From Chloroflexota bacterium (lineage in GTDB: Bacteria > Chloroflexota > Dehalococcoidia > Lucifugimonadales > UBA3495): DNA of 49,484 nucleotides. Shown one piece after another: positions 1 through 12,819 of this stretch. Within the stretch, counting starts at the first letter, position 1; the number at the start of each line of letters is the position of its first letter. The DNA is taken from the NCBI GenBank assembly GCA_022570905.1, contig JACZYV010000002.1, forward strand, positions 1 through 49,484. The letters are read 5' to 3'. The position numbers were made by a program, and so were the translations under genes. The notes below the pieces were generated by a model. It saw only the letters and a list, made by a program, of their open reading frames with translations. It was not told where the DNA came from and made no database searches.

Positions 1-121
1 CCATCCTAGCCTTCCCCCTTGCGAGAGGGAAGGGACTCGTTCTCTCCTCCTGGAGGGGAATGATTGGGGCGGGGTTGAAGGCCTCTTGGGGAACACGCCA
101 CCGATGAGGAGGCCAGACGGG

Positions 122-616
122 TTATTGGACCGTGATGGTCCCTGTCATGGAAGGATGGATACTGCAAAAATATGGGAACGCGCCCGAACTGTTGAATCTG
201 TGGCTGAAGGTACCGTTCTGACTGATCGCGGAACTATCGAATGCGCCGTCGAAGTTGGGCGATATCCCGGAGGTGGAGGTGTGCGCAGCGCTATCCAGGT
301 TGGTCCAGGTAACAGTTGTGCCGGCGGAGATAGTGAAACTCTCCAACGCGAAACTTTTGATCTGGGATGCCCTGGTCTGGCCCCCTGATGTTGCCCCGGG
401 GGTCGGCGTTGGCACCGAGCTGGAACCGCCGCCGCAGGCCATAGCCGCAATCAGACCCATCGATGCCAGCCCGCCGAACAGCGCTTGGCGCCATGAGAAT
501 GGTTTAGCCGCGGGATTTGTTCCGCCCCTTTGACCGTGCTCGATTCGGCTCATTTTTCCGAGGATTCCTTTTTGCCCGTCGGGCCAAATATAATTCATTC
601 CCCCGTCAAATTCCAC
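122..616 (-). CDS. Cupredoxin (amicyanin/plastocyanin-like type-1 blue copper protein), probable lipoprotein
   Basis: The C-terminal FCSIHPSMTGTITVQ gives a Cys-x2-His-x2-Met copper ligand loop, with an upstream His in SAAHTSTS. An N-terminal hydrophobic stretch ends in the lipobox-like AAMAC-GGGSS. The start is uncertain (GTG 616 or ATG 553). Confidence 0.75.
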   Translation of the reverse strand: MEFDGGMNYIWPDGQKGILGKMSRIEHGQRGGTNPAAKPFSWRQALFGGLASMGLIAAMACGGGSSSVPTPTPGATSGGQTRASQIKSFALESFTISAGTTVTWTNLDSAAHTSTSGISPNFDGAFDSSAISQNGTFSHRFNSSGAFPYFCSIHPSMTGTITVQ

Positions 617-632
617 TCAGCGTGGGCAGGTT

Positions 633-1805
633 TTACGGCGCCGGCGTGGCGGTCGTGGGAGCCGATGGCGCCGGGGTCGGCAACACGCCCTTTCTGGAAA
701 CGAAATAATAGGGGTCCGGCTGAAGCAACATCTGGCTCACGAACAGGTCCAGCGCCTGGTCGGAGAAGTAAACGTAGTAGGGCGAAATCGAAACCCGGGA
801 AGGCCTTACGCTGTCCAGGAAGTAGCCCCATTTGTCTATCCTGCCATCCAGCGATGGCGAGGCCCGCACAACATAGCTGGCCACGTTGGCCTCGTCGACA
901 TAGTTGTCGGCTAGTTGGTCGAAGGGTCCGTCATAGTAGTCGTTGATCGTCGCGTTTTGGCCGCGGATGGCCACCAGCACCTTTCTGGCGTCGTGGGCGC
1001 GGTCAACCCAAAATGCGAATCCGCTCCGCCGCCCCACCAAAATATCCTCACCGTGGGGCATCAACACATCGGGCAGAGGCACCTCTTCGTTCAGCACCCA
1101 ATTGAAGTAATTACGCTCGGTATTGAACAGCAGGATGAAGTTGTAACCTGACTCATCGTAGGTCTTCTCGATGTATTCTTCGCTCTCGCCAAGTTCGAAG
1201 AGGGCCGGAGGCTCTTGGCTGATCTGGTTCAAGTTGAAGATTACCTCTTTACCGTCGAAGCGGACCTTGAATGTGAACCTGTCCAACTCTTCGATCCTCA
1301 ATCCGTCGGCGTCGGTGAAGAATTTGTTCCGGACCAAGCGGGGCTCGGTGACGTAGGGCGACTCCTTGAACTCGAAGTAGGCGAAAGACAACACGCCGCG
1401 CTCACGCCGGCCCGCCGCCAGACGGATGTTGCCCCACAATTGCTTACCGTCGACGAAGAGTTTGAAGTAGTAATAGTTCTCGGTTGGGTAGACAACGACT
1501 TCGTCGGGCAGGCTGGAGAATACGAAGGTGAATACCTCATCCACATTCTCCACGTCAAGGGCTTTGCTTCGGAGGCCCTCCAGCCATCTCTGGTTGAAGA
1601 CCAGGTAGGGCTGGTCTCCGGTGGTGACGTTGGCGGCCGGAGGAGGAGCCGGCGTTCTGGTGTTGGCGGAAACCGCCGGCGCGTCCCCGGAGCCGGCTTC
1701 AGGGCTGGAAGCCGCTCCTCCGCCGCATGCGGCCAGCGCCAGCAGACCAAAACCAATGGGAGCCAGGAACCGTCCCCTGCCTGTGATGGATATCGTGAGA
1801 TTCAT
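633..1805 (-). CDS. Uncharacterised lipoprotein (~390 aa), no domain recognised
   Basis: Long ORF with high GC3. ATG 1805 is preceded by GGAGAAGGG. The signal peptide ends in LALAAC-GGG (lipobox) and is followed by a Pro/Ala-rich linker. The C-terminus is also Pro/Thr/Ala-rich. Confidence 0.7.
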   Translation of the reverse strand: MNLTISITGRGRFLAPIGFGLLALAACGGGAASSPEAGSGDAPAVSANTRTPAPPPAANVTTGDQPYLVFNQRWLEGLRSKALDVENVDEVFTFVFSSLPDEVVVYPTENYYYFKLFVDGKQLWGNIRLAAGRRERGVLSFAYFEFKESPYVTEPRLVRNKFFTDADGLRIEELDRFTFKVRFDGKEVIFNLNQISQEPPALFELGESEEYIEKTYDESGYNFILLFNTERNYFNWVLNEEVPLPDVLMPHGEDILVGRRSGFAFWVDRAHDARKVLVAIRGQNATINDYYDGPFDQLADNYVDEANVASYVVRASPSLDGRIDKWGYFLDSVRPSRVSISPYYVYFSDQALDLFVSQMLLQPDPYYFVSRKGVLPTPAPSAPTTATPAP

Positions 1806-1874
1806 CGGTCCAACCCTTCTCCGTACCACCCCACGCCACTGTCCCGGCGGGGTAGGGCAGGGGAAATAACCGAC

Positions 1875-1903
1875 ATTATCTTACCCCTCTAGAGGTTAGT
1901 CGA
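1875..1903 (-). promoter_or_regulatory. Candidate sigma70-type promoter for the lipoprotein/cupredoxin pair
   Basis: The minus strand reads TCGACT - 17 nt - GATAAT, about 70 nt upstream of ATG 1805. Confidence 0.3.
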
Positions 1904-1967
1904 GGAGCAGTCCGCCACGGGCGGCGCCGGCCCCGGACCGGTTGATTCCACCGTCGCCAGTCCGGGA

Positions 1968-2183
1968 TCAGTTCGATCCCGAGTGTACTGCATCGTGGGA
2001 GCCCACCGCTTCGTGGTCCGACAGGAAGGCGTCATGGGAGCCGGCATCGTAATGAGACGATAGCGCCGGATCGTGGGAGGCAGTCTCGTCATGGTTGGAG
2101 ATCACCGCGTCATGAGAGCCAACATCGTAGTGCCTCGACAACGCGACGTCGTGGGAGCCCACCTGGTCGTGGGCGGACAACAC
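1968..2183 (-). CDS. His/Asp-rich tandem-repeat protein (minimal ORF from GTG 2183; the repeat frame stays open upstream to 2480)
   Basis: Repeated SHDxxLSxH[YF]DxG units. It is the only frame open across the whole repeat array. Differences between units in the SHD core are synonymous in this frame. No Shine-Dalgarno precedes GTG 2183. Confidence 0.5.
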   Translation of the reverse strand: MLSAHDQVGSHDVALSRHYDVGSHDAVISNHDETASHDPALSSHYDAGSHDAFLSDHEAVGSHDAVHSGSN

Positions 2184-2312
2184 GGAATCGTGGGAAGCCG
2201 TCTCATAGTGGGCCGACAGGGCAACGTCGTGGGACCCGCTTTGGTCATGGCCCGACAGGAAAGCGTCGTGGGATCCCGCATCGAAGTGGGTCGAGAGCGT
2301 GGCGTCGTGGGA
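1971..2312 (-). repeat. Head-to-tail 39-bp tandem array, 8 full units plus a 30-bp partial unit
   Basis: The core GGC TCC CAC GAC (plus strand gtcgtgggagcc) recurs every 39 nt. Confidence 0.9.
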
Positions 2313-2353
2313 ACTGCCGGATAGGGCTGCGGGAGGTGCAATGGTGAGCGATG

Positions 2354-3061
2354 CTAGCTTTGTGAAACGATCTCGCCGTCCACCAGGTCCAGACGTCTCC
2401 GCGCCGTGGCCGCCAGGTCCAGGTCGTGGGTGGCCACGATCACGGTGGCCCGGCGGGACGCAGCAACCTCGCCCAGGGTCTCAGCGATGGACCGGGCGGT
2501 GGCGGTGTCAAGTTCACCGGTGGGCTCGTCGGCAAATACCACCTCAGGCCCAGCCACCAGCGCCCTGGCGATGGATACCCGCTGTTGTTCGCCGCCGGAG
2601 AGTTCAAAGGGACGGTGGCGGGCGCGGGTGCCCAGCCCCACCGCCCGCAGGGCCTCGTGGGCCCGCTGCCTCCGTTCCCGCCAGGACATGCCGCCGATGT
2701 GCAACGGCAATTCCACGTTTTCCTGGGCGGACAGCAAGGGCATGAGCCCGAATGATTGAAAAACGAAACCGATCTTATGCCGCCGCATCTCCACCAGGTC
2801 CGCCTCCCGCATCTCCGCCAGATCATCGCCGTGGAAAAGCACCGTGCCCGTGCTGGGACGGTCCAGCCCGGAGAGCAGATTGAGCAGCGTGGTCTTGCCG
2901 GAACCGGACCGGCCGGTTACCGCCAGGAATTCCCCCTGTTCGACGGTTAGACTGATGGCCGACAGGGCCGTCACGGCGGTGGCGCCTGACCCGAAGACCC
3001 GGCTTACATCCAAGGCCGTGAGCACCGGCCCGTTGGTTCTATTGGCTTGCATTACATCCAT
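2354..3061 (-). CDS. ABC transporter ATP-binding protein, MacB/LolD-type (ATPase 2)
   Basis: Walker A GRSGSGKTT, LSGLDRPSTG, signature [15 protein letters not shown], Walker [14 protein letters not shown]-loop ATHD. Confidence 0.9.
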   Translation of the reverse strand: MDVMQANRTNGPVLTALDVSRVFGSGATAVTALSAISLTVEQGEFLAVTGRSGSGKTTLLNLLSGLDRPSTGTVLFHGDDLAEMREADLVEMRRHKIGFVFQSFGLMPLLSAQENVELPLHIGGMSWRERRQRAHEALRAVGLGTRARHRPFELSGGEQQRVSIARALVAGPEVVFADEPTGELDTATARSIAETLGEVAASRRATVIVATHDLDLAATARRRLDLVDGEIVSQS

Positions 3062-3104
3062 TAACCTTGACTAGTTGGCCATCACTGGTTGGTTCCATTG
3101 GGGG

Positions 3105-4052
3105 TTAACCCCGGCTCCTGTGCTGCCGGGGGTTGGAGCCCGGCGGGTCGATGGTGATCTGGCTGCCATCCGACTTGATCCTGGCCAGGCCCCCACGGCG
3201 GAAGCGCTCGGCCAATTCCGTTGGGAGCTGGAGCCGGCCCGCCTGGTCCACAACCACGTATTCTTCTTCCACGGTGCCGCCATCACGCCGGTAATCGGGC
3301 CGGGAGAAAGTCTCGGAGCCGATTCGTCCGTCCCGGATATGGACCACGCGGTCCACAAACTGGGAAACACCCTGATAGTGGGTTACGGTGACCACGGTTA
3401 TGCCGTAGGAGCGGTTCAAGTCGCGGATCATCTGAAAGATGCTGTCCGCGTTCTCGGTGTCCAGCTCTCCGGTGGGTTCGTCGGCCAAAAGCAGGGGAGG
3501 CTTGTTGGCCAGACCCACGGCGATGGCGGCCCGTTGCTGTTCACCGCCGGACAACTGGTAGGGAAAGCGCTTTCTTTTGTCGGCCATATCCAGAGACACC
3601 AACAACTCGTCCGACCAGGCACGGCGCGCTTTTGCCGGCTGTCCGGACAGCGCCATGGGCAGTTCGATGTTGTCGGCGACGGAGAGGTAGGGCAACAGGT
3701 TCCGCGCCGTGGCCTGCCAAACAAAACCCACCTCCGAGCGCCGGTACATCACCAGGTCGCTGTCGGAGACGTCCAGCAGGTCTCGGGAGCCGACCAACAC
3801 CTGGCCCGCCGAGGGCCGGTCCAGGCCGGCCAGGATGTTGAGCAGCGTGCTTTTGCCGCTGCCGCTGGCCCCGATGACGGCGATCAATTCGCCGGATTCC
3901 ACGCTGAGGTCCAACCCCCGCAGGGCCACCACCTCCAAGTCGGCGCGTTTGTAGATCTTGAAAAGATCACGGCAATCGATGTACGGACCCGAAGCCCGGG
4001 CGGCCGCGCCGGTATCTCCACGGTATTCCCGATATTCATCAACCTGGGTCAT
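3105..4052 (-). CDS. ABC transporter ATP-binding protein, MacB/LolD-type, with a C-terminal AbrB/SpoVT-like extension (ATPase 1)
   Basis: Walker [50 protein letters not shown]. An extra ~85-aa tail contains [19 protein letters not shown]...[15 protein letters not shown] lies 8 nt upstream of the ATG. Confidence 0.9.
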
Positions 4053-4087
4053 CTAGCGTCTCCCATGATATATAAGGGGGAACTGGG

Positions 4088-7000
4088 TCATCCCGCATCT
4101 CCCATCCTGAGTACCTGCTGCACTTGTATCTTTGAGCTCAACCACGCCAGCCAGACCACCGTTACCACGGTGACCACCGCCAAAACCAGATAGGACACCG
4201 AGAGCGTCAACCAATCGGTGGTGAATGCCATGGGCGGCGTAACGCGCTCTCCTTCTTCGGCCACCTCCATCAGGGGCAAGAGGCTCGATCCGATCAGTTG
4301 GCCTACCCACGTTCCCAGGGCCACGCCGCATAGAACGATCAAGAATAGATTAAACCATACGATACCCCGTAATTGTCCGCCGGTCGCGCCCAGGGTCCGC
4401 AGCAGGGCGAACTCGGTCTGACGTTCCTTGGTGTCAAGGAACGAGAACAACATCACTCCCGAGCCGCTGGCCAGGGCCACCGCCAAGAACAAAAGCACCA
4501 GAAGGGCGCCCCAACCGGCGTTCACCAACGGTTGGTCCACCCGCGACGCCACCATGGCCTCCGCGTCAAATACCTCCCTGATGCTGACGCCCAACCGCTT
4601 CATTGACTCGTTGACCCGGCCGGCATCTCCCGCATCTCCCAGGTTATTCGACGCGCCAGGGACCGGCACGCCGGGGGTAGAGGTCAGGTCGATCCATATC
4701 TCGTTGGCTCCGGACAGGGGTATGCGGCTGTGTTGATTGGACGCGGCCGCAAACCTTTCCAGGTCCACCACCACAAAGGGTTTGTCCCCCGGGTCCAGCG
4801 TTGGGAAATAATTGGCCACGGCGGCGATGTTGACCAGCACGGAAAAGGTGGACAGCCCCAAGATCACGTCTTCGCCCACGGAGGCATCGGCCAGCTTCAA
4901 GAACTCTTCGTTGACCACCGCCGGAACCGGGGCCTCCGTTGGACCGGGTCTCAATCCCCGCATGCCGACGCCGCCGCTGGCCCAGCTGAACCGCATGGAT
5001 AATGGGAACTGGCCGCCCCCCGCCGACCCGCTGGTCTCCAGGGCGTATAGGCCCGGCCGCGAGAAGTCTTGGATCACCGACCAATCCTCCGGCGATCGAA
5101 AATCGGCCAAGGTCACCGGTCCGCTGGGAGTCAACGCCTCCAGTCTTCCCAGGAACACTGCTCCCAAATCGTCCGACCCAAAGGTGCGGAATCGGTCGGT
5201 GACTTGCAAGGACTGAAGCGTGAAGGGAGGAACCAGAGAGATGCTGCGCGCCTCGTTGGTGAAACGGCGCCCGACGGCAACCACCGGCGACAGGTCGGAT
5301 TGGATCTTGTTCCAGCCCTGCTCTCCCAAATCACCCACCCAAGTGTCGAAATACAGTCCTTGAGCGTCACGCAGCCTGGCCCATAGGTTGGCCCCCGAGT
5401 CGAGCCCGGCTGGTTGCACCCAGATGGACAGACCGGTCACGTCAGCGGGCAAAACCAAACCTTGGGGGCCTTCCGGCCCGTCCAACAGCAACTGGGCCAA
5501 CTCGTTGATCGACTTCCCGCCGGCCAGGTCGTCCCTGAACCAGGCCACATCCGCGATCCGGGAAGCGTCCACCGCCAGAACCGCGGCCGAGGAACTAAAC
5601 CCAGTGGTGGTGATCTGCCCGTTGGTGCGGTACACGTCCGCGGCGTGGAGCACCTCCGGGAATTTCCGCACTTCTTCGGCGAACCTTCCGCCAGGTCTAG
5701 CGCTGGAAACCCCGCTGTGACGGATCCTCAAGTCAGCTCCCGCCGCGTATAGGGCCCGCTCCTTCTGACTCCGTTCCAATGTCGAACTGAAGGCACTGCC
5801 GATGACACCGAGAGCGGTGGCCAAGGTCAGCAACACGATCAAGATACCCGGCACCATTGGGTCTCGGGATACATGGCGCAGCGAGTGCACCAACCAAGAC
5901 GGAGCGAAGGGACCGGCCAGCCGCGAAAGAAGCATGGCGAACCACGGGAATATCCGCATGACCACCAACCCGACCGCCAGAAGCCCCAGGACCGGTCCCA
6001 ACATCAGGCTGTAGTCGATCTCCAGTTCCCGGCTGCCCACCGATTGGACCAGGAACGAACCCCGGCTTTGGATCTGCCACCAAAGAAGGCCGATGAGGGC
6101 CAGCAGCAGGAAGTCCAGGTAGTAACGATGCAGGAAAGACGCCGTGGGAGGCCGGGCCCCGGTCTGCCTCGCTTCCACGATGCCCTGTCTGGCCGCCGCC
6201 AGGGTGGCCACCGTGAACACCACCACCGCGAGAATCCCTCCGGCCAGCCCCAGCAGAACGGCTCCTTGAGACACAGTTACCGGCACACCGGATAATTGGT
6301 CGGCCCCCCCGCCCAAACTGAAGAAAACGTTGCCTAGGACCCTGACCACTCCCATGGCCAAGAACGGTCCAATTATCACCGCCGGGATACCCAGCAGCAG
6401 ACCCTCTCCCAGTCCTAACATGCCCACCTGCGCCGTGGTGGCGCCCCGGCTTTTCAGCATGGCGATCTCGCTGGAGCGGGAACGGACGATCAAGCCGGCC
6501 ACCAAAGCCAGATAATAAAGCAGGATCCCGGTGATCAGAAACACCACCAGAAACAGGGGCACCCTGGCCAACAATAATTGCTCGTCGAAGTCGGTCAGCA
6601 GGTTGTCCAGCCGGATGGAGAAGCTGGAATTCTTCAGATTGAATCTGATGTTATTCTCGGCCCGGAGGATGGTCTCCCGCAGGTCCCCCACATCTCCGGC
6701 CCGCAGTCCCTCCCGGTCCAGGTAGTAGAACCAGGTGACATCGGTGTACAGGGTCGGATACTCGCCGAGCACCCGGTTCAAGATGGCCTCTTCGCTGGTG
6801 AACAACGGCACGATGGTCCACCGGTCGTTCTTGACGCTGAAGTCCTTTTTGACCCGATACCAGAACTCGTCATCCGGGTCGACAAGCTCAAAAACCCCGG
6901 ATATCCGCACCGGCATGGAGGGCGGGTCGGTGAACGACGCCGCCGGGAAGACGTCCATCGTCTGGCCGACCTCCAGGCCCAGCAGCTCCAGGCCCAGACC

Positions 7001-7525
7001 GTCCACGGCGACGTCCACCGGAGTGCCCGGTGGCGCGGCGGCGTTTAGCGCCCCCGGCCAACTCCCCTGTGTCAGCGTGACCCGGTCCGGCGCGAAACCC
7101 GACATATAAATGATGGACCCCCTGGGCCGGATATCGTTGTCCAACTCCAGTTGCGGGTGCCCCTCGAAATAAAAGGTGGCGGTGTCCAGCACCCGTGCCT
7201 GTTCTTTCACATATGGAGCGAAGGGGGCGGATATCTCGTCTTGGGCGAATCTCAGCCGTTCCTGGTAAACCGCGCGGCGTCCCGAGGTCGTGGACGGCTC
7301 ATCCTGGCTGCTGAACGACCGCATCGAGATATTGACCTCTTCGGGGGGAGCCTGGAGCAGCGTGTGGCGCAGCGAAGCGTTGGACAATAGGTCGGAGAAG
7401 ATCACGCCGCTGGCCATCAGCGCCACCGCCATGAGGATGCCGCCAAAAAGCACGGCCTCCAAACGCCAGCCGGAAACGGCTCTCCGGACGGCCATCACGT
7501 AGGCGAACCGGATCATGGGCATCAT
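4088..7525 (-). CDS. FtsX-family ABC permease, fused double-FtsX type (1145 aa, ~10 TM, two large extracytoplasmic domains)
   Basis: By eye, the hydrophobic spans follow the pattern TM1, ~300-aa hydrophilic domain, TM2-7, ~420-aa hydrophilic domain, TM8-10. The start overlaps the upstream stop by 1 nt (TGATG). It is a paralog of 7525..10881. Confidence 0.8.
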   Translation of the reverse strand: MMPMIRFAYVMAVRRAVSGWRLEAVLFGGILMAVALMASGVIFSDLLSNASLRHTLLQAPPEEVNISMRSFSSQDEPSTTSGRRAVYQERLRFAQDEISAPFAPYVKEQARVLDTATFYFEGHPQLELDNDIRPRGSIIYMSGFAPDRVTLTQGSWPGALNAAAPPGTPVDVAVDGLGLELLGLEVGQTMDVFPAASFTDPPSMPVRISGVFELVDPDDEFWYRVKKDFSVKNDRWTIVPLFTSEEAILNRVLGEYPTLYTDVTWFYYLDREGLRAGDVGDLRETILRAENNIRFNLKNSSFSIRLDNLLTDFDEQLLLARVPLFLVVFLITGILLYYLALVAGLIVRSRSSEIAMLKSRGATTAQVGMLGLGEGLLLGIPAVIIGPFLAMGVVRVLGNVFFSLGGGADQLSGVPVTVSQGAVLLGLAGGILAVVVFTVATLAAARQGIVEARQTGARPPTASFLHRYYLDFLLLALIGLLWWQIQSRGSFLVQSVGSRELEIDYSLMLGPVLGLLAVGLVVMRIFPWFAMLLSRLAGPFAPSWLVHSLRHVSRDPMVPGILIVLLTLATALGVIGSAFSSTLERSQKERALYAAGADLRIRHSGVSSARPGGRFAEEVRKFPEVLHAADVYRTNGQITTTGFSSSAAVLAVDASRIADVAWFRDDLAGGKSINELAQLLLDGPEGPQGLVLPADVTGLSIWVQPAGLDSGANLWARLRDAQGLYFDTWVGDLGEQGWNKIQSDLSPVVAVGRRFTNEARSISLVPPFTLQSLQVTDRFRTFGSDDLGAVFLGRLEALTPSGPVTLADFRSPEDWSVIQDFSRPGLYALETSGSAGGGQFPLSMRFSWASGGVGMRGLRPGPTEAPVPAVVNEEFLKLADASVGEDVILGLSTFSVLVNIAAVANYFPTLDPGDKPFVVVDLERFAAASNQHSRIPLSGANEIWIDLTSTPGVPVPGASNNLGDAGDAGRVNESMKRLGVSIREVFDAEAMVASRVDQPLVNAGWGALLVLLFLAVALASGSGVMLFSFLDTKERQTEFALLRTLGATGGQLRGIVWFNLFLIVLCGVALGTWVGQLIGSSLLPLMEVAEEGERVTPPMAFTTDWLTLSVSYLVLAVVTVVTVVWLAWLSSKIQVQQVLRMGDAG

Positions 7526-10500
7526 CAGATGCCACCCCGCAGGACCTCGGCGGTGTTGAGCCGCCGGGCGGCCACCACGGCGAAAGCCACCGACAGGGCC
7601 GAGGCCGCCACCATTCCGGTCAAAACTCCGGCCATCAACCAGCCCCTAACGGACGGCAAAAGCGGCGGCACTGGGTCGTTTCCTTGAGGCGTCAGGTCCA
7701 CAAGTTCCAGCACCTCCAGTCCCGGCCAATAACCCATGGCGGCCCCGGCGGCGATGGCCAACACGGCGATGATCAACCGCTCCGTGGCCAGGGACAGAAA
7801 GAATTGGCGGTGCGAGAACCCCAGCACCCGGACCACCGCCAGGTCCATCCGGCCCATCCGGACCGACACCAAGGCGTGAACGGTCAGCGTCAGCAATACG
7901 GCGATACCGATGGCCACCATGCTGAAGATGGTCAGGCCGTCCCAGCCGCCGCCCGCCAGAGGGTTCCGCCCGGCCAACGACGCCACGGCTTCGGCGTCCC
8001 GCACGGAGACCAGTCCGGGTATCATGTCTGCTATATCTTCGATGACCTGCTCACGGTCCGCCGCTGCGTCCAGGGCCAGCCACATCTCGGCGGGCCGGCC
8101 TATAACGCTCACCGGCAGGCGTCTGGCGTACTCTCGAAAGTCGGACAGGTCCAGCAAGAAAAATGGCCGCCGGTCGGGTCTCAGCGTCGGGAAGTGGCTG
8201 ACCACGCCTACGAACTGCACCGGAACGGCCAGACTGCCCAACTTCACCCGCACCTGTTGACCAACCTGGAAGCCGGGACCACCGATGGCCGGGAGCGGGA
8301 ACGGACCCGGCGGCAGATGAATCCCCCTCTGACCATTGGCGATCGGCTCCTTCCAGGAGAACTGAAGGCCTGACCCCCCGGTCCGTGCGCTGATGCCGGC
8401 CCGCCGGGCCACGTCGGGAGTTTTACCCTGGTTGGCCAACGGCGCCCAGGGAGTCAGGCTCTCGAATCCCTCGATCACGAGTCCTTCCGTCCCCAATGAC
8501 GGGCCGAACGCGGTGATGTCGTCCAGGTGCAGGACCCCGTCTGACAACCGGTTGGACGGGGTGGTTGAGAAGAACAGCCCGACCAGCTCAAATGGCGGCG
8601 AGGCCAGGCCGGTATCGGGGAGGTCCCCGGTGAACAGCCTCCATGGTCCATCAACCGCCTTAACATCGCCCTCGTCCGCATCTGATGACTCCGGGACTTC
8701 CAGCTCCAATATGTTGCCCATGGAGATGGTGCGGTAGGAGCCGGTGGCGGTCATCACCCTGGCCCACATGTTCACGCCGAACTGCAGGTTCTTTTCGAAC
8801 AAAACGCCGCTGTCTACCCACACGCCCAGGGACACAGTGTCCTCCGGCAGTGGTATGCCGGTGCCGGAGAGGTTGGACGGAAAGGGTCTGGGCCGAAGAA
8901 GCCTGCTGATCCCTTGCAGACCTCCGGGAAAAAAGTCATCCCTGAACCAGGCGGTTTTCGCCAGCGCCCGGGGGTCCACCGCGAACAGGTCCACGTTCTG
9001 GCCAAGAGGACCGTCCAGAAGGGTGACCGAGTCGCGCATGATGGCGGTGACCGCCGTCACTCCCGTTATCTTTTCCAGTTTCTCCGGGGCGTCTTCGGGC
9101 AGGGCAGGGCCTCTCACCACCATGTTTCCGCCAACTCTGTAGCGGGCCTGGTCGCTCTGGTTCTGAGACAAACTGGACTGGAAGGTGGCTCCAAAGACCC
9201 CCAACGCCGTCGCCAACATCAGGATCACCGCCAATGAGCCGTGGGGAATTGGGTCTCTGGCCAAGCGCAAGAGTGAGAACTGGAACCAGGCGGCGCCGGC
9301 CCGTGTTCCGGCCCAGGCCAGCAGCCGGACCACCAGCGGCAACACGCGCAGCAGCAGGACGGCCGCCGCGAAAAGCCCCAGCACCGGTCCTAGGATCAGG
9401 GTCGGGTCCACATTGAGTCCCTGAGACGCCAGTCCTTCGGCCACGAACCCCTCACGGCCCTGCACCTGGAACCAGATCACAGCAACCGTAAGCACAGCCA
9501 GTATGTCCAGATAATAACGGTGCAGGAAGGGGACCGACGGGGGTCTGGCCCTGGACAGCAATGTCTCCAATGTGCCCATCCTGGCCCGGCCCGTGGCGGT
9601 GACCAGCAGTACCGCCAGGGCCATCACGCCCCCTAAAATCCCCATCCAAAACATATCTCCGGCCAGTCCCAGTGGAATGGGATCGGCGAACTCACCACCT
9701 GGATTGATGGTGTCCAAAAGCAGGGTTTTTACGATGACCCAGGCCAAGAACGGGCCCACCACCATGGCGGCAAGGACCACCACCGACTCCGCCATGGCCA
9801 GCACGCCGCTCACTTGAATCACGCTGGCGCCCCGGCTCCGGAGCAAGCCGGCTTCCTCAGCCTGACTCCGGCCCAGGGTCCCGGTGATGAGAGCCAGAAA
9901 ATAGAGGACCACCACCACGACCAGTGATAGGTACAGATACAACGGGATCCTGGCCAGGGTAAGCGCTTTTTCGAACTCCTCGATGGTGCGGCCCAGCCGG
10001 CTCAGCACCAGGGTGCGCGGGTATACCTTGTTCAGATCGGTTTCCAGGCCGAGGACCTGCCGTTTCACGTCGCTGGCGTTGCCGGCGGTCAGTTTACCGG
10101 CGTCCAAGAACAGGTAGAACCCGAAGTCGCCCACCAACGTCGGATAGCGGGCCCCGATACCCTGGAAGAAGTCGTCTTCGGTCACAAACAGAGGCACCAC
10201 CACCGACTCGCCAACGGGAACGATGTCGAAGTATATCGGCGCGCCCATCCAGTATTCCTCCCGGGCGTCGATGGGGTCGGCCACGCCCACTATCTTGAAA
10301 GTGATGCGCTCCGACGACCCCCGGCGGGGAATCAGGAATACCCGGTCTCCAACAAAATAACTCAGTTTGCGGGACGTCTCCGAGCCGACGACTACCTCGA
10401 TGTCCCCTTGGCCTTCCGGGTCTTGGAACGCTCCACTCTTAGGCCAACGCCCTTGCGTGAGAACCGAGTGTTCGGTGAAGCCGGTGAGGAAAAACGGGCG

Positions 10501-10881
10501 GCCCGACGGTGAGCCAAGCACCGGCTGTGTTGGTGTGTTCAGCAGGGTCAGATTCGGCTGGGTCCGCCCGAACCGCTCTGTGCTCCGCAGCATCTCTCCC
10601 AAGCGGTCGTTGGACGCCTGCTCGACCAGGTTTTTCAAGGGCAGGTAGTCCACCCTCCCCAGGGGCCGGTTTTGAGCCGTGACCTGGGCGTTATGGACCT
10701 CGGGGCTGAATGAGGCTACAGAGTGGCGCAGCCCGGCTTCGCCCAGGGCGCGGGAGTACAGGGCCCCAGTGGACATGATCGTCACCGAAGCCAAGATGCC
10801 AAAAGAGGTGACCGCCAGCAATAGCCAGGAATGGCGCAGCCGCCGGCGCAACAGCCAAGTTACCAGGGACAGAAGCTGCAT
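7525..10881 (-). CDS. FtsX-family ABC permease, fused double-FtsX type (1118 aa, ~10 TM, two large extracytoplasmic domains)
   Basis: Same topology pattern as 4088..7525, including the shared HRYYLD(I/F)L motif before TM5. GGAGGG lies ~13 nt upstream of ATG 10881. Confidence 0.8.
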   Translation of the reverse strand: MQLLSLVTWLLRRRLRHSWLLLAVTSFGILASVTIMSTGALYSRALGEAGLRHSVASFSPEVHNAQVTAQNRPLGRVDYLPLKNLVEQASNDRLGEMLRSTERFGRTQPNLTLLNTPTQPVLGSPSGRPFFLTGFTEHSVLTQGRWPKSGAFQDPEGQGDIEVVVGSETSRKLSYFVGDRVFLIPRRGSSERITFKIVGVADPIDAREEYWMGAPIYFDIVPVGESVVVPLFVTEDDFFQGIGARYPTLVGDFGFYLFLDAGKLTAGNASDVKRQVLGLETDLNKVYPRTLVLSRLGRTIEEFEKALTLARIPLYLYLSLVVVVVLYFLALITGTLGRSQAEEAGLLRSRGASVIQVSGVLAMAESVVVLAAMVVGPFLAWVIVKTLLLDTINPGGEFADPIPLGLAGDMFWMGILGGVMALAVLLVTATGRARMGTLETLLSRARPPSVPFLHRYYLDILAVLTVAVIWFQVQGREGFVAEGLASQGLNVDPTLILGPVLGLFAAAVLLLRVLPLVVRLLAWAGTRAGAAWFQFSLLRLARDPIPHGSLAVILMLATALGVFGATFQSSLSQNQSDQARYRVGGNMVVRGPALPEDAPEKLEKITGVTAVTAIMRDSVTLLDGPLGQNVDLFAVDPRALAKTAWFRDDFFPGGLQGISRLLRPRPFPSNLSGTGIPLPEDTVSLGVWVDSGVLFEKNLQFGVNMWARVMTATGSYRTISMGNILELEVPESSDADEGDVKAVDGPWRLFTGDLPDTGLASPPFELVGLFFSTTPSNRLSDGVLHLDDITAFGPSLGTEGLVIEGFESLTPWAPLANQGKTPDVARRAGISARTGGSGLQFSWKEPIANGQRGIHLPPGPFPLPAIGGPGFQVGQQVRVKLGSLAVPVQFVGVVSHFPTLRPDRRPFFLLDLSDFREYARRLPVSVIGRPAEMWLALDAAADREQVIEDIADMIPGLVSVRDAEAVASLAGRNPLAGGGWDGLTIFSMVAIGIAVLLTLTVHALVSVRMGRMDLAVVRVLGFSHRQFFLSLATERLIIAVLAIAAGAAMGYWPGLEVLELVDLTPQGNDPVPPLLPSVRGWLMAGVLTGMVAASALSVAFAVVAARRLNTAEVLRGGI

Positions 10882-11093
10882 GAAGCTTAGCGGCCCTCCA
10901 GGTCACCGGCGAACGCCGGCCCCCTGGCGGCGGTCTTCGGTTTGGGCTCAGTGTTCGGTGGGGGCGATGCCCCATGAATATCGATTACCGGCATAACAGT
11001 GTTGGATTATACGATGTTACCGGGGATTACGGATTAGGCCGGGTCCAATGGCGGGTTTTTGGCCTCCGGCTAAACTGAGACTGGCCGAGGGGT

Positions 11094-11131
11094 GGAAAAT
11101 CCCCCTTGGTCCCCCTTTACGAAAGGGGGAG
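11094..11131 (+). repeat. Small GC-hairpin repeat element, copy 1
   Basis: Sequence GGAAAATCCCCCTTGGTCCCCCTTTACGAAAGGGGGAG. It has an internal hairpin CCCCCTTT/AAAGGGGG. Confidence 0.7.
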
Positions 11132-11185
11132 ATGGCTGTCCCCCGTCCACGGTTCAAAAGACAGCGGTATTAAATAGACAACGAG

Positions 11186-11219
11186 ACCCCCCTTTGTAAA
11201 GGGGGCCTGGGGGATTTCC
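11186..11219 (-). repeat. Small GC-hairpin repeat element, copy 2 (inverted relative to copy 1)
   Basis: The reverse complement reads GGAAATCCCCCAGGCCCCCTTTACAAAGGGGGGT, which is near-identical in layout to copy 1. Confidence 0.7.
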
Positions 11220-11289
11220 GGCCCGCCGGCAGCCAAGTTGAGCCCGGCAACACCCGGGAACTCCGGACCACTGCCAAGCTAAGGCCCCA

Positions 11290-11298
11290 TGCTATAAT
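11290..11298 (+). promoter_or_regulatory. Candidate extended -10 promoter element (TGcTATAAT) for the SDR gene
   Basis: TGCTATAAT lies ~75 nt upstream of ATG 11374. The -35 is weak (CTGCCA). Confidence 0.35.
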
Positions 11299-11373
11299 CC
11301 CGCCCACCGGTCAAAGGCCGTAATTAGGCGTGCCTGAGACCCCTAGATTCGGCACTATCTACGAGGTCCAACC

Positions 11374-12123
11374 ATGAAGCGTCTGGAAGGCAAAACAGCC
11401 CTGGTCACCGGCTCCGGCCGCAACATCGGCCGGGCCATCATCCTGAAACTGGCGGAAGAGGGCGCCAACGTCGTGGTGAACGCCCGGAGCAACAAGGAAG
11501 AAGCGGAATCGGTGGCCGCCGAGGCCCGGGCCCTGGGCGTGGAAGCCCTGCCATTCATCGCCGACGTTTCAGACCACCAGCAGGTGACAAACATGTTCGC
11601 CGCCGCCGCGGAGCAGTTCGGCGGGGTGGACATCCTGGTCAGCAACGCCGCCATCCGGCCCCACCAACCATTCACCGAGGTCACCCTGGAAGAATGGCAG
11701 CGGGTCAGGGGCGTGGTGCTGGACGGGGCGTTCCACGTTGCCCATGCGGCCATCCCACACATGGAGAAGAACGGCTACGGGAGGGTGGTGTTCTTCACCG
11801 GAGACGGCGCTTTCAAGGGGACTGCCCAGCGCTCCCACGTATCCGCCGCCAAGATGGGGGTCATCGGCCTGGCCAGGGGACTGGCCTCTGAGTTCGCGCC
11901 CAAGAACATCCGGGTGAACGTCATCTCTCCGGGGCGCATCGACACCACCAGAGACCTCAGTTGGTACCCCCAGGGCGGTATGCGCGATACGGCGGACATC
12001 CCAATAGGCCGCCTGGGCACGGTGAACGATATTGCGTCGGCCTGCCTGTTCCTGATCACCGACGAGTGCGGCTTCATGACCGGTCAGACCCTGCACGTGA
12101 ACGGCGGGACCGACTTCTTCTAG
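11374..12123 (+). CDS. Short-chain dehydrogenase/reductase family protein (divergent active-site motifs)
   Basis: TGSGRNIGRAI Rossmann motif, NAA, IRVNVISPG. The expected YxxxK region reads HVSAAK. Confidence 0.8.
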   Translation: MKRLEGKTALVTGSGRNIGRAIILKLAEEGANVVVNARSNKEEAESVAAEARALGVEALPFIADVSDHQQVTNMFAAAAEQFGGVDILVSNAAIRPHQPFTEVTLEEWQRVRGVVLDGAFHVAHAAIPHMEKNGYGRVVFFTGDGAFKGTAQRSHVSAAKMGVIGLARGLASEFAPKNIRVNVISPGRIDTTRDLSWYPQGGMRDTADIPIGRLGTVNDIASACLFLITDECGFMTGQTLHVNGGTDFF

Positions 12124-12144
12124 GCCCCTCGCTCGGGTAGCCAC

Positions 12145-12819
12145 CTAGCTCCTGAAGCGGAACTCTTTCAGGTCATCGGCGATGATGAGCTTGGCCTCGG
12201 TCTGCTCCTGAATCTCCTCGGGGCTCCAGCCTGGGGCATGCTCAACCAGTTTGAATCCCTGGGGCGTGATCTCAAAGAGGCCCAGGTCGGTGACCAGCAT
12301 CTTCACCACGCCGGGGGCGGTGATGGGCAGGCTGCACTTTTTCAACAGCTTGAGCCCACCGTCGCGGGTGGTGTGTTCCATGGCGATGAACACCCGCTTG
12401 GCGCCGGCCGCCAGGTCCATCGCCCCGCCGATGCCTCCGCCCTTGCGGCTGGGGATGCGCCAATTCGCGAAGTCGCCGTTCTCGGCTACTTCATAAGCGC
12501 CCATCACGGTTACGTCGATCATGCCGCCGCGAATCATCATGAATGAGTCGGCGTGGTGCACGCAGGCCATACCGGGCAGGGGGGTAACCTTCTGTCCGCC
12601 GGCGTTCACCAGGTGCCGGTCCTCCTCACCTTCCTTGGCCAACGGCCCATAACCAATGACACCGTTCTCAGCGTGATTGATGATCTCTCTGCTGGGATCC
12701 GAATAGTTTGAACACAACGTGGGCATGCCGACGCCCAGGTTAACGATCCAGCCGTCTTGAAATTCCATGGCCAGCCGGTCACACATCGCTTGTCGTTCCA
12801 ATTTCACCTTTTCGGCCAT
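12145..12819 (-). CDS. Family I CoA-transferase subunit B (3-oxoacid/3-oxoadipate CoA-transferase beta-like)
   Basis: NLGVGMP and the AENG motif (catalytic Glu position). Paired with a subunit A gene immediately upstream. GGAG lies 8 nt upstream of the ATG. Confidence 0.85.
   Translation of the reverse strand: MAEKVKLERQAMCDRLAMEFQDGWIVNLGVGMPTLCSNYSDPSREIINHAENGVIGYGPLAKEGEEDRHLVNAGGQKVTPLPGMACVHHADSFMMIRGGMIDVTVMGAYEVAENGDFANWRIPSRKGGGIGGAMDLAAGAKRVFIAMEHTTRDGGLKLLKKCSLPITAPGVVKMLVTDLGLFEITPQGFKLVEHAPGWSPEEIQEQTEAKLIIADDLKEFRFRS

Follow-up and report, generated by a model that had tools for sequence, protein, structure and literature searches.

A conserved operon encoding two fused double-FtsX permeases and two ABC ATPases in SAR202-type Dehalococcoidia

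Introduction

ATP-binding cassette (ABC) systems of the MacB family were described in a 2018 review by the organisation of their permeases, as homodimers (MacB, FtsX), heterodimers (LolCE), or fused proteins bearing a single outer domain (BceB) or a pair of them (YbbP) (PMC5985334). YbbP is a fused Type VII permease of ten transmembrane helices (TM), with Porter and Sabre domains inserted after TM1 and after TM7, and with coupling helices at TM2-3 and TM8-9, and is assembled with its ATPase at a stoichiometry of 2 YbbA : 1 YbbP (PMC12646458). Here, an operon encoding two fused permeases (permA and permB) and two ATPases (ATPase1 and ATPase2) was analyzed in contig JACZYV010000002.1 (assembly GCA_022570905.1) of a Dehalococcoidia bacterium; the window, i.e., the whole stretch of DNA analyzed, covers positions 1 to 49,484 of the contig (49,484 nucleotides). 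Two fused permeases with two ATPases are not among the organisations listed in the review (PMC5985334). An initial annotation of the window had allowed that this two-plus-two (2+2) arrangement might already be characterized under a known name; no paper describing such a system, or this SAR202 operon, was found by full-text literature searches (transporter classifications lay outside the search), and the names carried by database entries were generic. The operon extends a known class, in that its fold and general mechanism are familiar and its 2+2 organisation is a variant not previously described in the literature found.

In the dark ocean few bacteria are as abundant as SAR202, whose envelope biology is little explored. 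The operon is conserved across this clade, and few of the clade's membrane machines are larger. SAR202 cells grown in culture are monoderm, are without peptidoglycan synthesis genes, and carry an S-layer-like coat (PMC10444878).

Gene content and conserved arrangement

Four co-oriented open reading frames (ORFs) on the minus strand encode, by ORF calls and translations, permA (7525..10881, 1118 amino acids (aa)), permB (4088..7525, 1145 aa), ATPase1 (3105..4052, 315 aa) and ATPase2 (2354..3061, 235 aa). The TGA stop of permA and the ATG start of permB share 1 nt, read as TGATG, and the next two gaps are 35 nt (permB-ATPase1) and 43 nt (ATPase1-ATPase2). The four consecutive genes and their junctions had been called in the initial annotation; the ORF coordinates matched exactly, and the junctions were reproduced from coordinates and sequence. 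G+C content at third codon positions was 0.78-0.80 in the four ORFs, as in other long ORFs of the window and typical of coding sequence. At ~2,800 codons in total, the operon is best read as a self-contained, co-transcribed four-gene unit of SAR202-type Dehalococcoidia (Chloroflexota).

At least 500 homologs were found for each permease, which argues that the permease genes are not a chance ORF pattern; every named homolog came from Chloroflexota, SAR202 cluster or Dehalococcoidia metagenome-assembled genomes (MAGs). With each GTDB species represented by one genome, a scan gave 125 relatives, and the best 80, all Dehalococcoidia, SAR202 or Chloroflexota, were taken as loci for comparison, on which the window proteins were placed by tblastn. 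The order permA-permB-ATPase1-ATPase2 was present on one strand in 75/80 loci, with identity down to 39% for permB and 32-33% for permA, and four of the five loci without the full order end at contig edges. In locus L071 (13239-14261), permA, permB and ATPase1, the long ATPase only, are followed by an unrelated opposite-strand gene (2+1).

Further divergent lineages carry the 2+2 set with products of 1218, 1118, 295 and 237 aa (L083/L084), of 1039, 1105, 300 and 234 aa (L085), or of 1160 aa, a second permease split over two ORF calls (355 and 430 aa), 298 aa and 236 aa (L086). The initial annotation had proposed a comparison of gene neighborhoods across related genomes; the set was found to be kept both in these lineages and in the 75 loci. 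Two permeases with no adjoining ATPase are encoded in L081/L082 (4020-11699; 1387 and 1136 aa; 2+0), a single permease stands alone in L087 (2581-6300; 1239 aa; 1+0), and the L088 contig stops at the second of two permeases (1243 and 1092 aa). The 2+2 set prevails, the other sets being rarer, and no link within it is as persistent as that between the two permeases.

The MAG of SAR202 cluster bacterium Io17-Chloro-G6 encodes two permA-type proteins (P0162 and P0171) on different contigs, with 75% and 73% identity to permA of the window, so that either the module is present twice in this genome or the bin holds mixed strains.

Fold of the permeases

Both permeases contain two FtsX stretches according to Pfam, and a 19-residue hydropathy scan gave one layout for both: TM1, ~275-280 hydrophilic aa, six TM, ~415-430 hydrophilic aa, and three TM. 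An FtsX-type unit of four TM, whose first and second helices flank a large outer domain, is a mark of Type VII systems and was found here. The outer domains occupy residues ~56-295 and ~589-975 of permA and, in permB, residues ~59-305 (TM1-TM2; 6611..7351, minus strand) and ~596-998 (TM7-TM8; 4532..5740, minus strand). The two proteins are collinear end to end (BLASTP, 28% identity over ~1100 aa, E 1e-112), and the alignment includes a common FLHRYYLD motif. In permB, the HRYYLD portion (residues 466-471; 6113..6130, minus strand; permA counterpart residues 454-459) lies where TM5 begins on the cytoplasmic side, with R467, Y468 and D471 invariant in 61 sequences.

permB was modelled with AlphaFold2 (AF2) using a 61-sequence alignment of both paralog families. 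The model (mean predicted local distance difference test score (pLDDT) 81, predicted template modelling score (pTM) 0.74) showed ten long helices and two outer domains. Pfam, hydropathy and AF2 thus agree with the initial annotation, in which the permeases were paralogs sharing the HRYYLD motif and one layout, each a fused double-FtsX protein with ten TM and two big outer domains; the two external domains per permease, left there to topology prediction, are seen in the permB model.

Comparison of the permB model with the PDB by Foldseek gave E. coli YbbP (9ge6_A) as the top match, over the full length, with E 1e-17 and 13% identity, followed by MacB, BceB, LolE/LolC and HrtB. Because of this full-length match, permB is, as modelled, a YbbP-like permease of the Type VII ABC class, and its two outer domains are of the Porter/Sabre type. 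Structural alignment to YbbP and AF2 secondary structure place outer domain 1 as Porter/Sabre-type, and outer domain 2 appears as a Porter-type frame with an inserted beta-rich domain (AF2, Foldseek). The model also matched the periplasmic domains of LolE and of MacB taken in isolation (E ~1e-3, TM-score 0.45-0.51), and PF12704 is recorded in several permA orthologs, so that a Porter(+Sabre) core domain is present by structural matches and by PF12704 in orthologs; Pfam did not detect PF12704 in the permeases of the window itself. The initial annotation had assigned the outer domains to no family. That no longer holds for their cores, which are of the MacB/LolCE/YbbP type (Foldseek; PF12704 in orthologs), and still holds for a ~200-aa beta-sandwich in domain 2, for which a convincing structural relative is lacking.

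The NCBIfam scan gave weak sub-threshold matches of permB to lolCE/LolE and to the ADOP family, and no match for permA. A PDB search with the family profile returned weak matches to the C-terminal FtsX unit of LolF/LolC/LolE and to a transmembrane part of PsdB, and the outer domains gave no match; the closest matches for the C-terminal FtsX unit were LolF (E 2e-5) and LolC (E 1e-3). The permeases are YbbP-like in architecture and are not YbbP orthologs by sequence. Mean pairwise identity was 0.38-0.46 in the outer domains vs. 0.48-0.69 in the membrane parts, and the faster evolution of the outer domains fits an outward-facing specificity element, although it does not name the ligand.

The beta-sandwich of outer domain 2

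Outer domain 2 of permB is ~200 residues longer than its counterpart in YbbP. The insert lies at residues ~690-875 (4901..5458, minus strand). When residues 650-945 were modelled alone, a beta-rich sandwich was obtained (pLDDT 84.6, pTM 0.84), and five tryptophans (W702, W715, W738, W815, W848) were fully or almost fully conserved in both paralog families. Foldseek of this model against PDB and BFVD gave no match below E 1e-3. A label as carbohydrate- or lipid-binding module was considered; the best matches, to a flagellar sheath protein, PLAT/C2-type beta-sandwiches and lectins, had TM-scores of ~0.2 and were taken as generic beta-sandwich noise, and the label was therefore dropped.

With a profile of residues 650-945, a search of 1.84 billion representative proteins gave 974 matches at E ≤ 1e-3. 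Every full-length protein in the top 150 of these was 1040-1390 aa with the segment at the equivalent position, and for ten that were looked up, mostly longer variants, all four named clusters were Chloroflexota, SAR202 or Dehalococcoidia. As far as this profile search reaches, the segment appears confined to the present permease architecture.

The two ATPases and the ATPase1 tail

Pfam identified ABC_tran in both ATPases, and their top NCBIfam matches were LolD, MacB, YbbA and FtsE, all under the equivalog cut-offs (206 and 224 bits against the LolD equivalog, cut-off 308). The two are 41% identical, and ATPase1 is ~70 aa longer at its C-terminus, an extension that ATPase2 is without; their description as distinct paralogs in the initial annotation stands, with the tail as a further difference. 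In the ortholog consensus of both proteins the Walker A, Q-loop, LSGGEQQR signature, Walker B D-E and H-loop are all kept, therefore neither site looks degenerate. A cognate ATPase of the LolD/MacB/FtsE type with complete catalytic motifs, another mark of a Type VII system, is thus encoded.

The ATPase1 extension (residues ~245-315; 3108..3320, minus strand) and its core motif E-Y-L-V-V-D-x-A-G-R-L-Q-L-P-x-E are conserved in 37 distinct orthologs. A PDB profile search with the tail gave sub-threshold matches to AbrB/Abh chains (E 0.7-1.6 over 38 residues), and Pfam MraZ matched 4/16 members, again sub-threshold (E 0.033). The swapped-hairpin core of the AbrB/MazE/MraZ superfamily spans ~45 residues; hhalign against AbrB/Abh/SpoVT N-domains, whose sequences were entered by hand, gave a probability of 52% (E 1.4e-4). 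The tail may be tentatively described as AbrB/MraZ/SpoVT-like: it weakly resembles the AbrB/MraZ swapped-hairpin domains, which is a lead and no assignment. Together with the beta-sandwich, it is a defined target for structural work.

One machine or two

With a probability of roughly 55%, permA and permB would work as an obligate pair, either within one hetero-assembly or as two interdependent units on two ATPases. Interdependence is favored because of the strict A-B-1-2 order, the permA/permB overlap, the occurrence of the pair without adjacent ATPases, and the partial correlations of pairwise evolutionary distances, among which permA-permB was the highest (0.62). That for permB-ATPase1 was 0.52, and all other pairs were 0.13-0.23 (permA-ATPase1 0.13, permA-ATPase2 0.15).

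Several points weigh against this pairing. Raw mirror-tree correlations were r = 0.92-0.97 among the four proteins, and because all four share one phylogeny the signal is weak and confounded. Linked genes can persist for regulatory reasons without physical contact. The lone permease in L087 and the second ATPase not adjacent in L071 indicate that the four parts are not strictly inseparable. YbbP and BceB each need no more than one homodimeric ATPase, and by analogy the simplest view would be that of two independent pumps.

Two independent YbbP-like pumps, arisen by tandem duplications and each driven by a homodimer of one ATPase, are accordingly a possible, if somewhat unlikely, arrangement. 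For example, an ATPase1 dimer could have its tails paired beneath the ATPase domains in the manner of the regulatory domains of MetN, ModC and MalK, with an ATPase2 dimer on the other permease. The fused permeases known so far use one homodimeric ATPase (YbbA2:YbbP1; PMC12646458), both ATPases here are catalytically canonical, and one lineage (L087) has a lone permease. The tentative likeness of the tail to AbrB also fits an ATPase1 homodimer. AbrB-type swapped-hairpin domains need two copies to fold, and such a tail would therefore require a second ATPase1. However, the order maintained over deep divergence is A-B-1-2 and not A-1-B-2, independent units would be expected to separate or to vanish singly more often than was observed, and the mirror-tree and partial-correlation test gave no clean one-permease-to-one-ATPase pattern, permA being correlated with neither ATPase above 0.15 and permB with ATPase1 at 0.52. 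We therefore lean towards the obligate pair over two independent pumps.

In its strongest form, the pairing of permA with permB would place all four proteins in one obligate hetero-assembly of four FtsX units and four outer domains on ATPase1-ATPase2 heterodimers, in which the AbrB-like tails of two ATPase1 copies would pair to bridge the halves or tie them to regulation, for a task specific to peptidoglycan-less monoderm Chloroflexota. This is a doubtful proposal; if true, the quaternary organisation would be one without a described precedent among Type VII ABC systems. The conserved set would also make it possible to ask, in a naturally occurring system, whether heterodimeric ATPases can drive fused permeases.

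Proposed mechanism and function

The operon encodes a Type VII (MacB/FtsX-fold) ABC system of YbbP architecture, presumably a mechanotransmission machine. Each permease is a pseudo-dimer of two FtsX units linked through TM5-6 and carries two stalk-mounted Porter/Sabre-type outer domains, the second enlarged by the lineage-specific beta-sandwich. The ATPases would act on the cytoplasmic coupling helices (TM2-3, TM8-9), and ATP binding and hydrolysis would move the stalks and outer domains, so that work would be done at the external face of the membrane and not by solute passage through a channel.

A monoderm host without peptidoglycan synthesis genes, as cultured SAR202 is, argues against roles of the FtsEX type (activation of peptidoglycan hydrolases), the LolCDE type (lipoprotein traffic to an outer membrane) and the MacAB-TolC type (tripartite efflux), and these analogies were set aside. 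For the same reason the likeliest job would be to pull amphiphilic or hydrophobic molecules out of the outer leaflet or to expel them, a task with precedents in YbbAP, HrtBA, BceAB (with its lipid pocket) and LolCDE.

All flank ORFs were clustered by sequence across the loci. Short-chain dehydrogenase/reductase and CoA-transferase genes recurred upstream in the closer relatives of the window, and further recurring clusters held typical SAR202 metabolic genes, among them luciferase-like monooxygenases, amidases and cupins. No recurring cluster among the flank ORFs of related loci looked like an accessory or partner protein, and no TesA-type partner was seen among the recurring clusters (by sequence clustering, with Pfam on some window neighbors only). 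Likewise, no two-component system was seen among those recurring clusters that were identified by sequence; a histidine kinase and response regulator lie upstream on the opposite strand in L081/L082 only.

These flanks bear on an alternative to the extraction of a membrane compound, a mechanotransmitter that steers an extracellular enzyme or the surface layer by FtsEX-like logic, with the beta-sandwich of outer domain 2 as docking site. Type VII systems often act via partners such as EnvC, PcsB, TesA and LolA (PMC12646458), the conserved Trp-rich beta-sandwich could bind one, and SAR202 has an S-layer-like coat (PMC10444878). Yet flank clustering gave no partner gene conserved beside the operon, there is no peptidoglycan to remodel (PMC10444878), and the beta-sandwich has no recognizable lectin or enzyme-binding relative by Foldseek (PDB and BFVD), which together make this an improbable role.

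More unlikely still is a resistance module against antimicrobial peptides or drugs of the BceAB/SalXY/MacB kind. It is suggested by the generic JGI name of homologs ('ABC-type antimicrobial peptide transport system permease') and by BceB and MacB among the structural matches; but such database names are COG-level transfers and not tests, BceB has one outer domain and works with BceRS whereas two outer domains and no such system among the identified flank clusters were found here, and there is no MacA/TolC context in a cell that is monoderm. Moreover, BceAB guards lipid II-cycle intermediates, and cultured SAR202 is without peptidoglycan synthesis genes (PMC10444878).

Genomic surroundings

A repeat ORF (1968-2354, minus strand) is open directly after the ATPase2 stop and consists of nine tandem units of 13 aa (39 nt), S-H-D-x-x-L-S-x-H-(Y)-D-x-G. 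No canonical start codon precedes codon ~58, the first being GTG at 2183. In L011 (15343-15795), a similar SHD-repeat ORF with a signal-peptide-like N-terminus adjoins a cupredoxin downstream of the operon. The product may be a secreted His/Asp-rich metal-binding protein, and the ORF of the window may be a remnant of it. Two further minus-strand ORFs follow. One, at 633-1829 (398 aa), has no Pfam match, a likely start at MNLTISITG... and the lipobox L-A-A-C-G; the other, at 122-616 (164 aa), is a cupredoxin (PF00127) with the lipobox M-A-C-G-G. Both are thus predicted lipoproteins in a monoderm Chloroflexota genome.

In the initial annotation, these three downstream neighbors (122-2350) were taken as a hint of an envelope or metal-related role, and their conservation with the operon was proposed as a check. 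They were not conserved: across the 80 loci, the SHD-repeat ORF and cupredoxin recurred in L011 only and a fragment of the lipoprotein in L007 only. The repeat ORF, lipoprotein and cupredoxin were accordingly rejected as components. An envelope system linked to metal or copper that includes them is hardly credible, since, although they adjoin the operon in the window and L011 has its signal-peptide-bearing repeat ORF and cupredoxin in the same downstream place, that recurrence is confined to two loci, the flanks elsewhere are unrelated metabolic genes (luciferase-like monooxygenases, amidases, cupins), and the repeat ORF of the window has no canonical start in its first part. With neighbors that are not conserved and no partner-like cluster, the module appears self-contained and the metal hint unsupported.

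The contigs of L001, L002, L003, L004, L011 and L017 stop 0.2-1.2 kb downstream of ATPase2, which is consistent with a repeat or hypervariable stretch that breaks assemblies. In L083/L084 (1-6650), the operon lies near opposite-strand genes for a PMT_2-type glycosyltransferase, DUF2298 and LPG_synthase_TM, an envelope-modification neighborhood not seen in the lineage of the window.

Upstream, a divergent intergenic region of ~490 nt (10882..11373) lies 5' of permA and is the presumed promoter region. A pattern search found two near-identical GC-rich hairpins in it (11184-11208 and 11111-11129; CCCCCTTT-loop-AAAGGGGG), 230-330 nt upstream of permA. A hairpin at the same position was found in one related locus only (L069), and the pair was therefore rejected as a conserved regulator. 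An Rfam scan of 1-12,500 for riboswitches gave only two chance-level matches, both inside coding sequence, and none in the intergenic region; counts from a promoter and terminator scan were near shuffle expectation, with nothing decisive.

Comparison with known systems

The ADOP family of Acidobacteria (TIGR03434) also consists of duplicated FtsX permeases, of ~800 aa. ADOP stands for 'duplicated orphan permease', a name that would bring to mind the 2+0 and 1+0 variants of the present family. The score against this family was 21.3 bits (cut-off 622.3), however, and ADOP belongs to another phylum and is without the giant second outer domain.

LolCDE and LolF share the Type VII fold with a Porter/Sabre outer domain, and LolC with LolE is a case of two different permeases in one machine. 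Unlike the present permeases, those of Lol systems are unfused 4-TM proteins of ~400 aa, are served by one ATPase gene (LolD homodimer), and need an outer membrane and LolA/B, both absent from monoderm cells; the permease score against the lolCE NCBIfam was 28 bits (cut-off 362).

BceAB(-S) of Firmicutes (PDB 7TCG, 8G3A) is similar in its 10-TM fused FtsX fold (Foldseek E ~1e-8 to 1e-9), its separate ATPase and its monoderm host. In contrast to the operon, with its two outer domains per permease, BceB carries an outer domain at TM7-8 only, is served by one ATPase gene, and has a histidine kinase and a regulator as partners; BceAB acts on lipid II-cycle intermediates, which are not expected in cultured SAR202 (PMC10444878).

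The closest likeness is to E. coli YbbAP(-TesA) (PDB 9GE6/9GE7/9GE8), in the 10-TM fused double-FtsX permease, the outer domains at TM1-2 and TM7-8, the TM5-6 linker and the separate LolD-like ATPase. The operon differs in that no conserved TesA-like partner was seen nearby and the host is monoderm, in the extra ~200-aa beta-sandwich of outer domain 2, and in the C-terminal extension of ATPase1. YbbP has 804 aa and is encoded as one permease with one ATPase gene, whereas two paralogous permeases of ~1100 aa, with 13% identity to YbbP, and two different ATPases are found here; the one-permease-one-ATPase gene set is not matched, with two plus two genes in 75/80 loci. As a conserved set of two fused permeases and two ATPases, the operon would add to the organisations of Type VII ABC systems.

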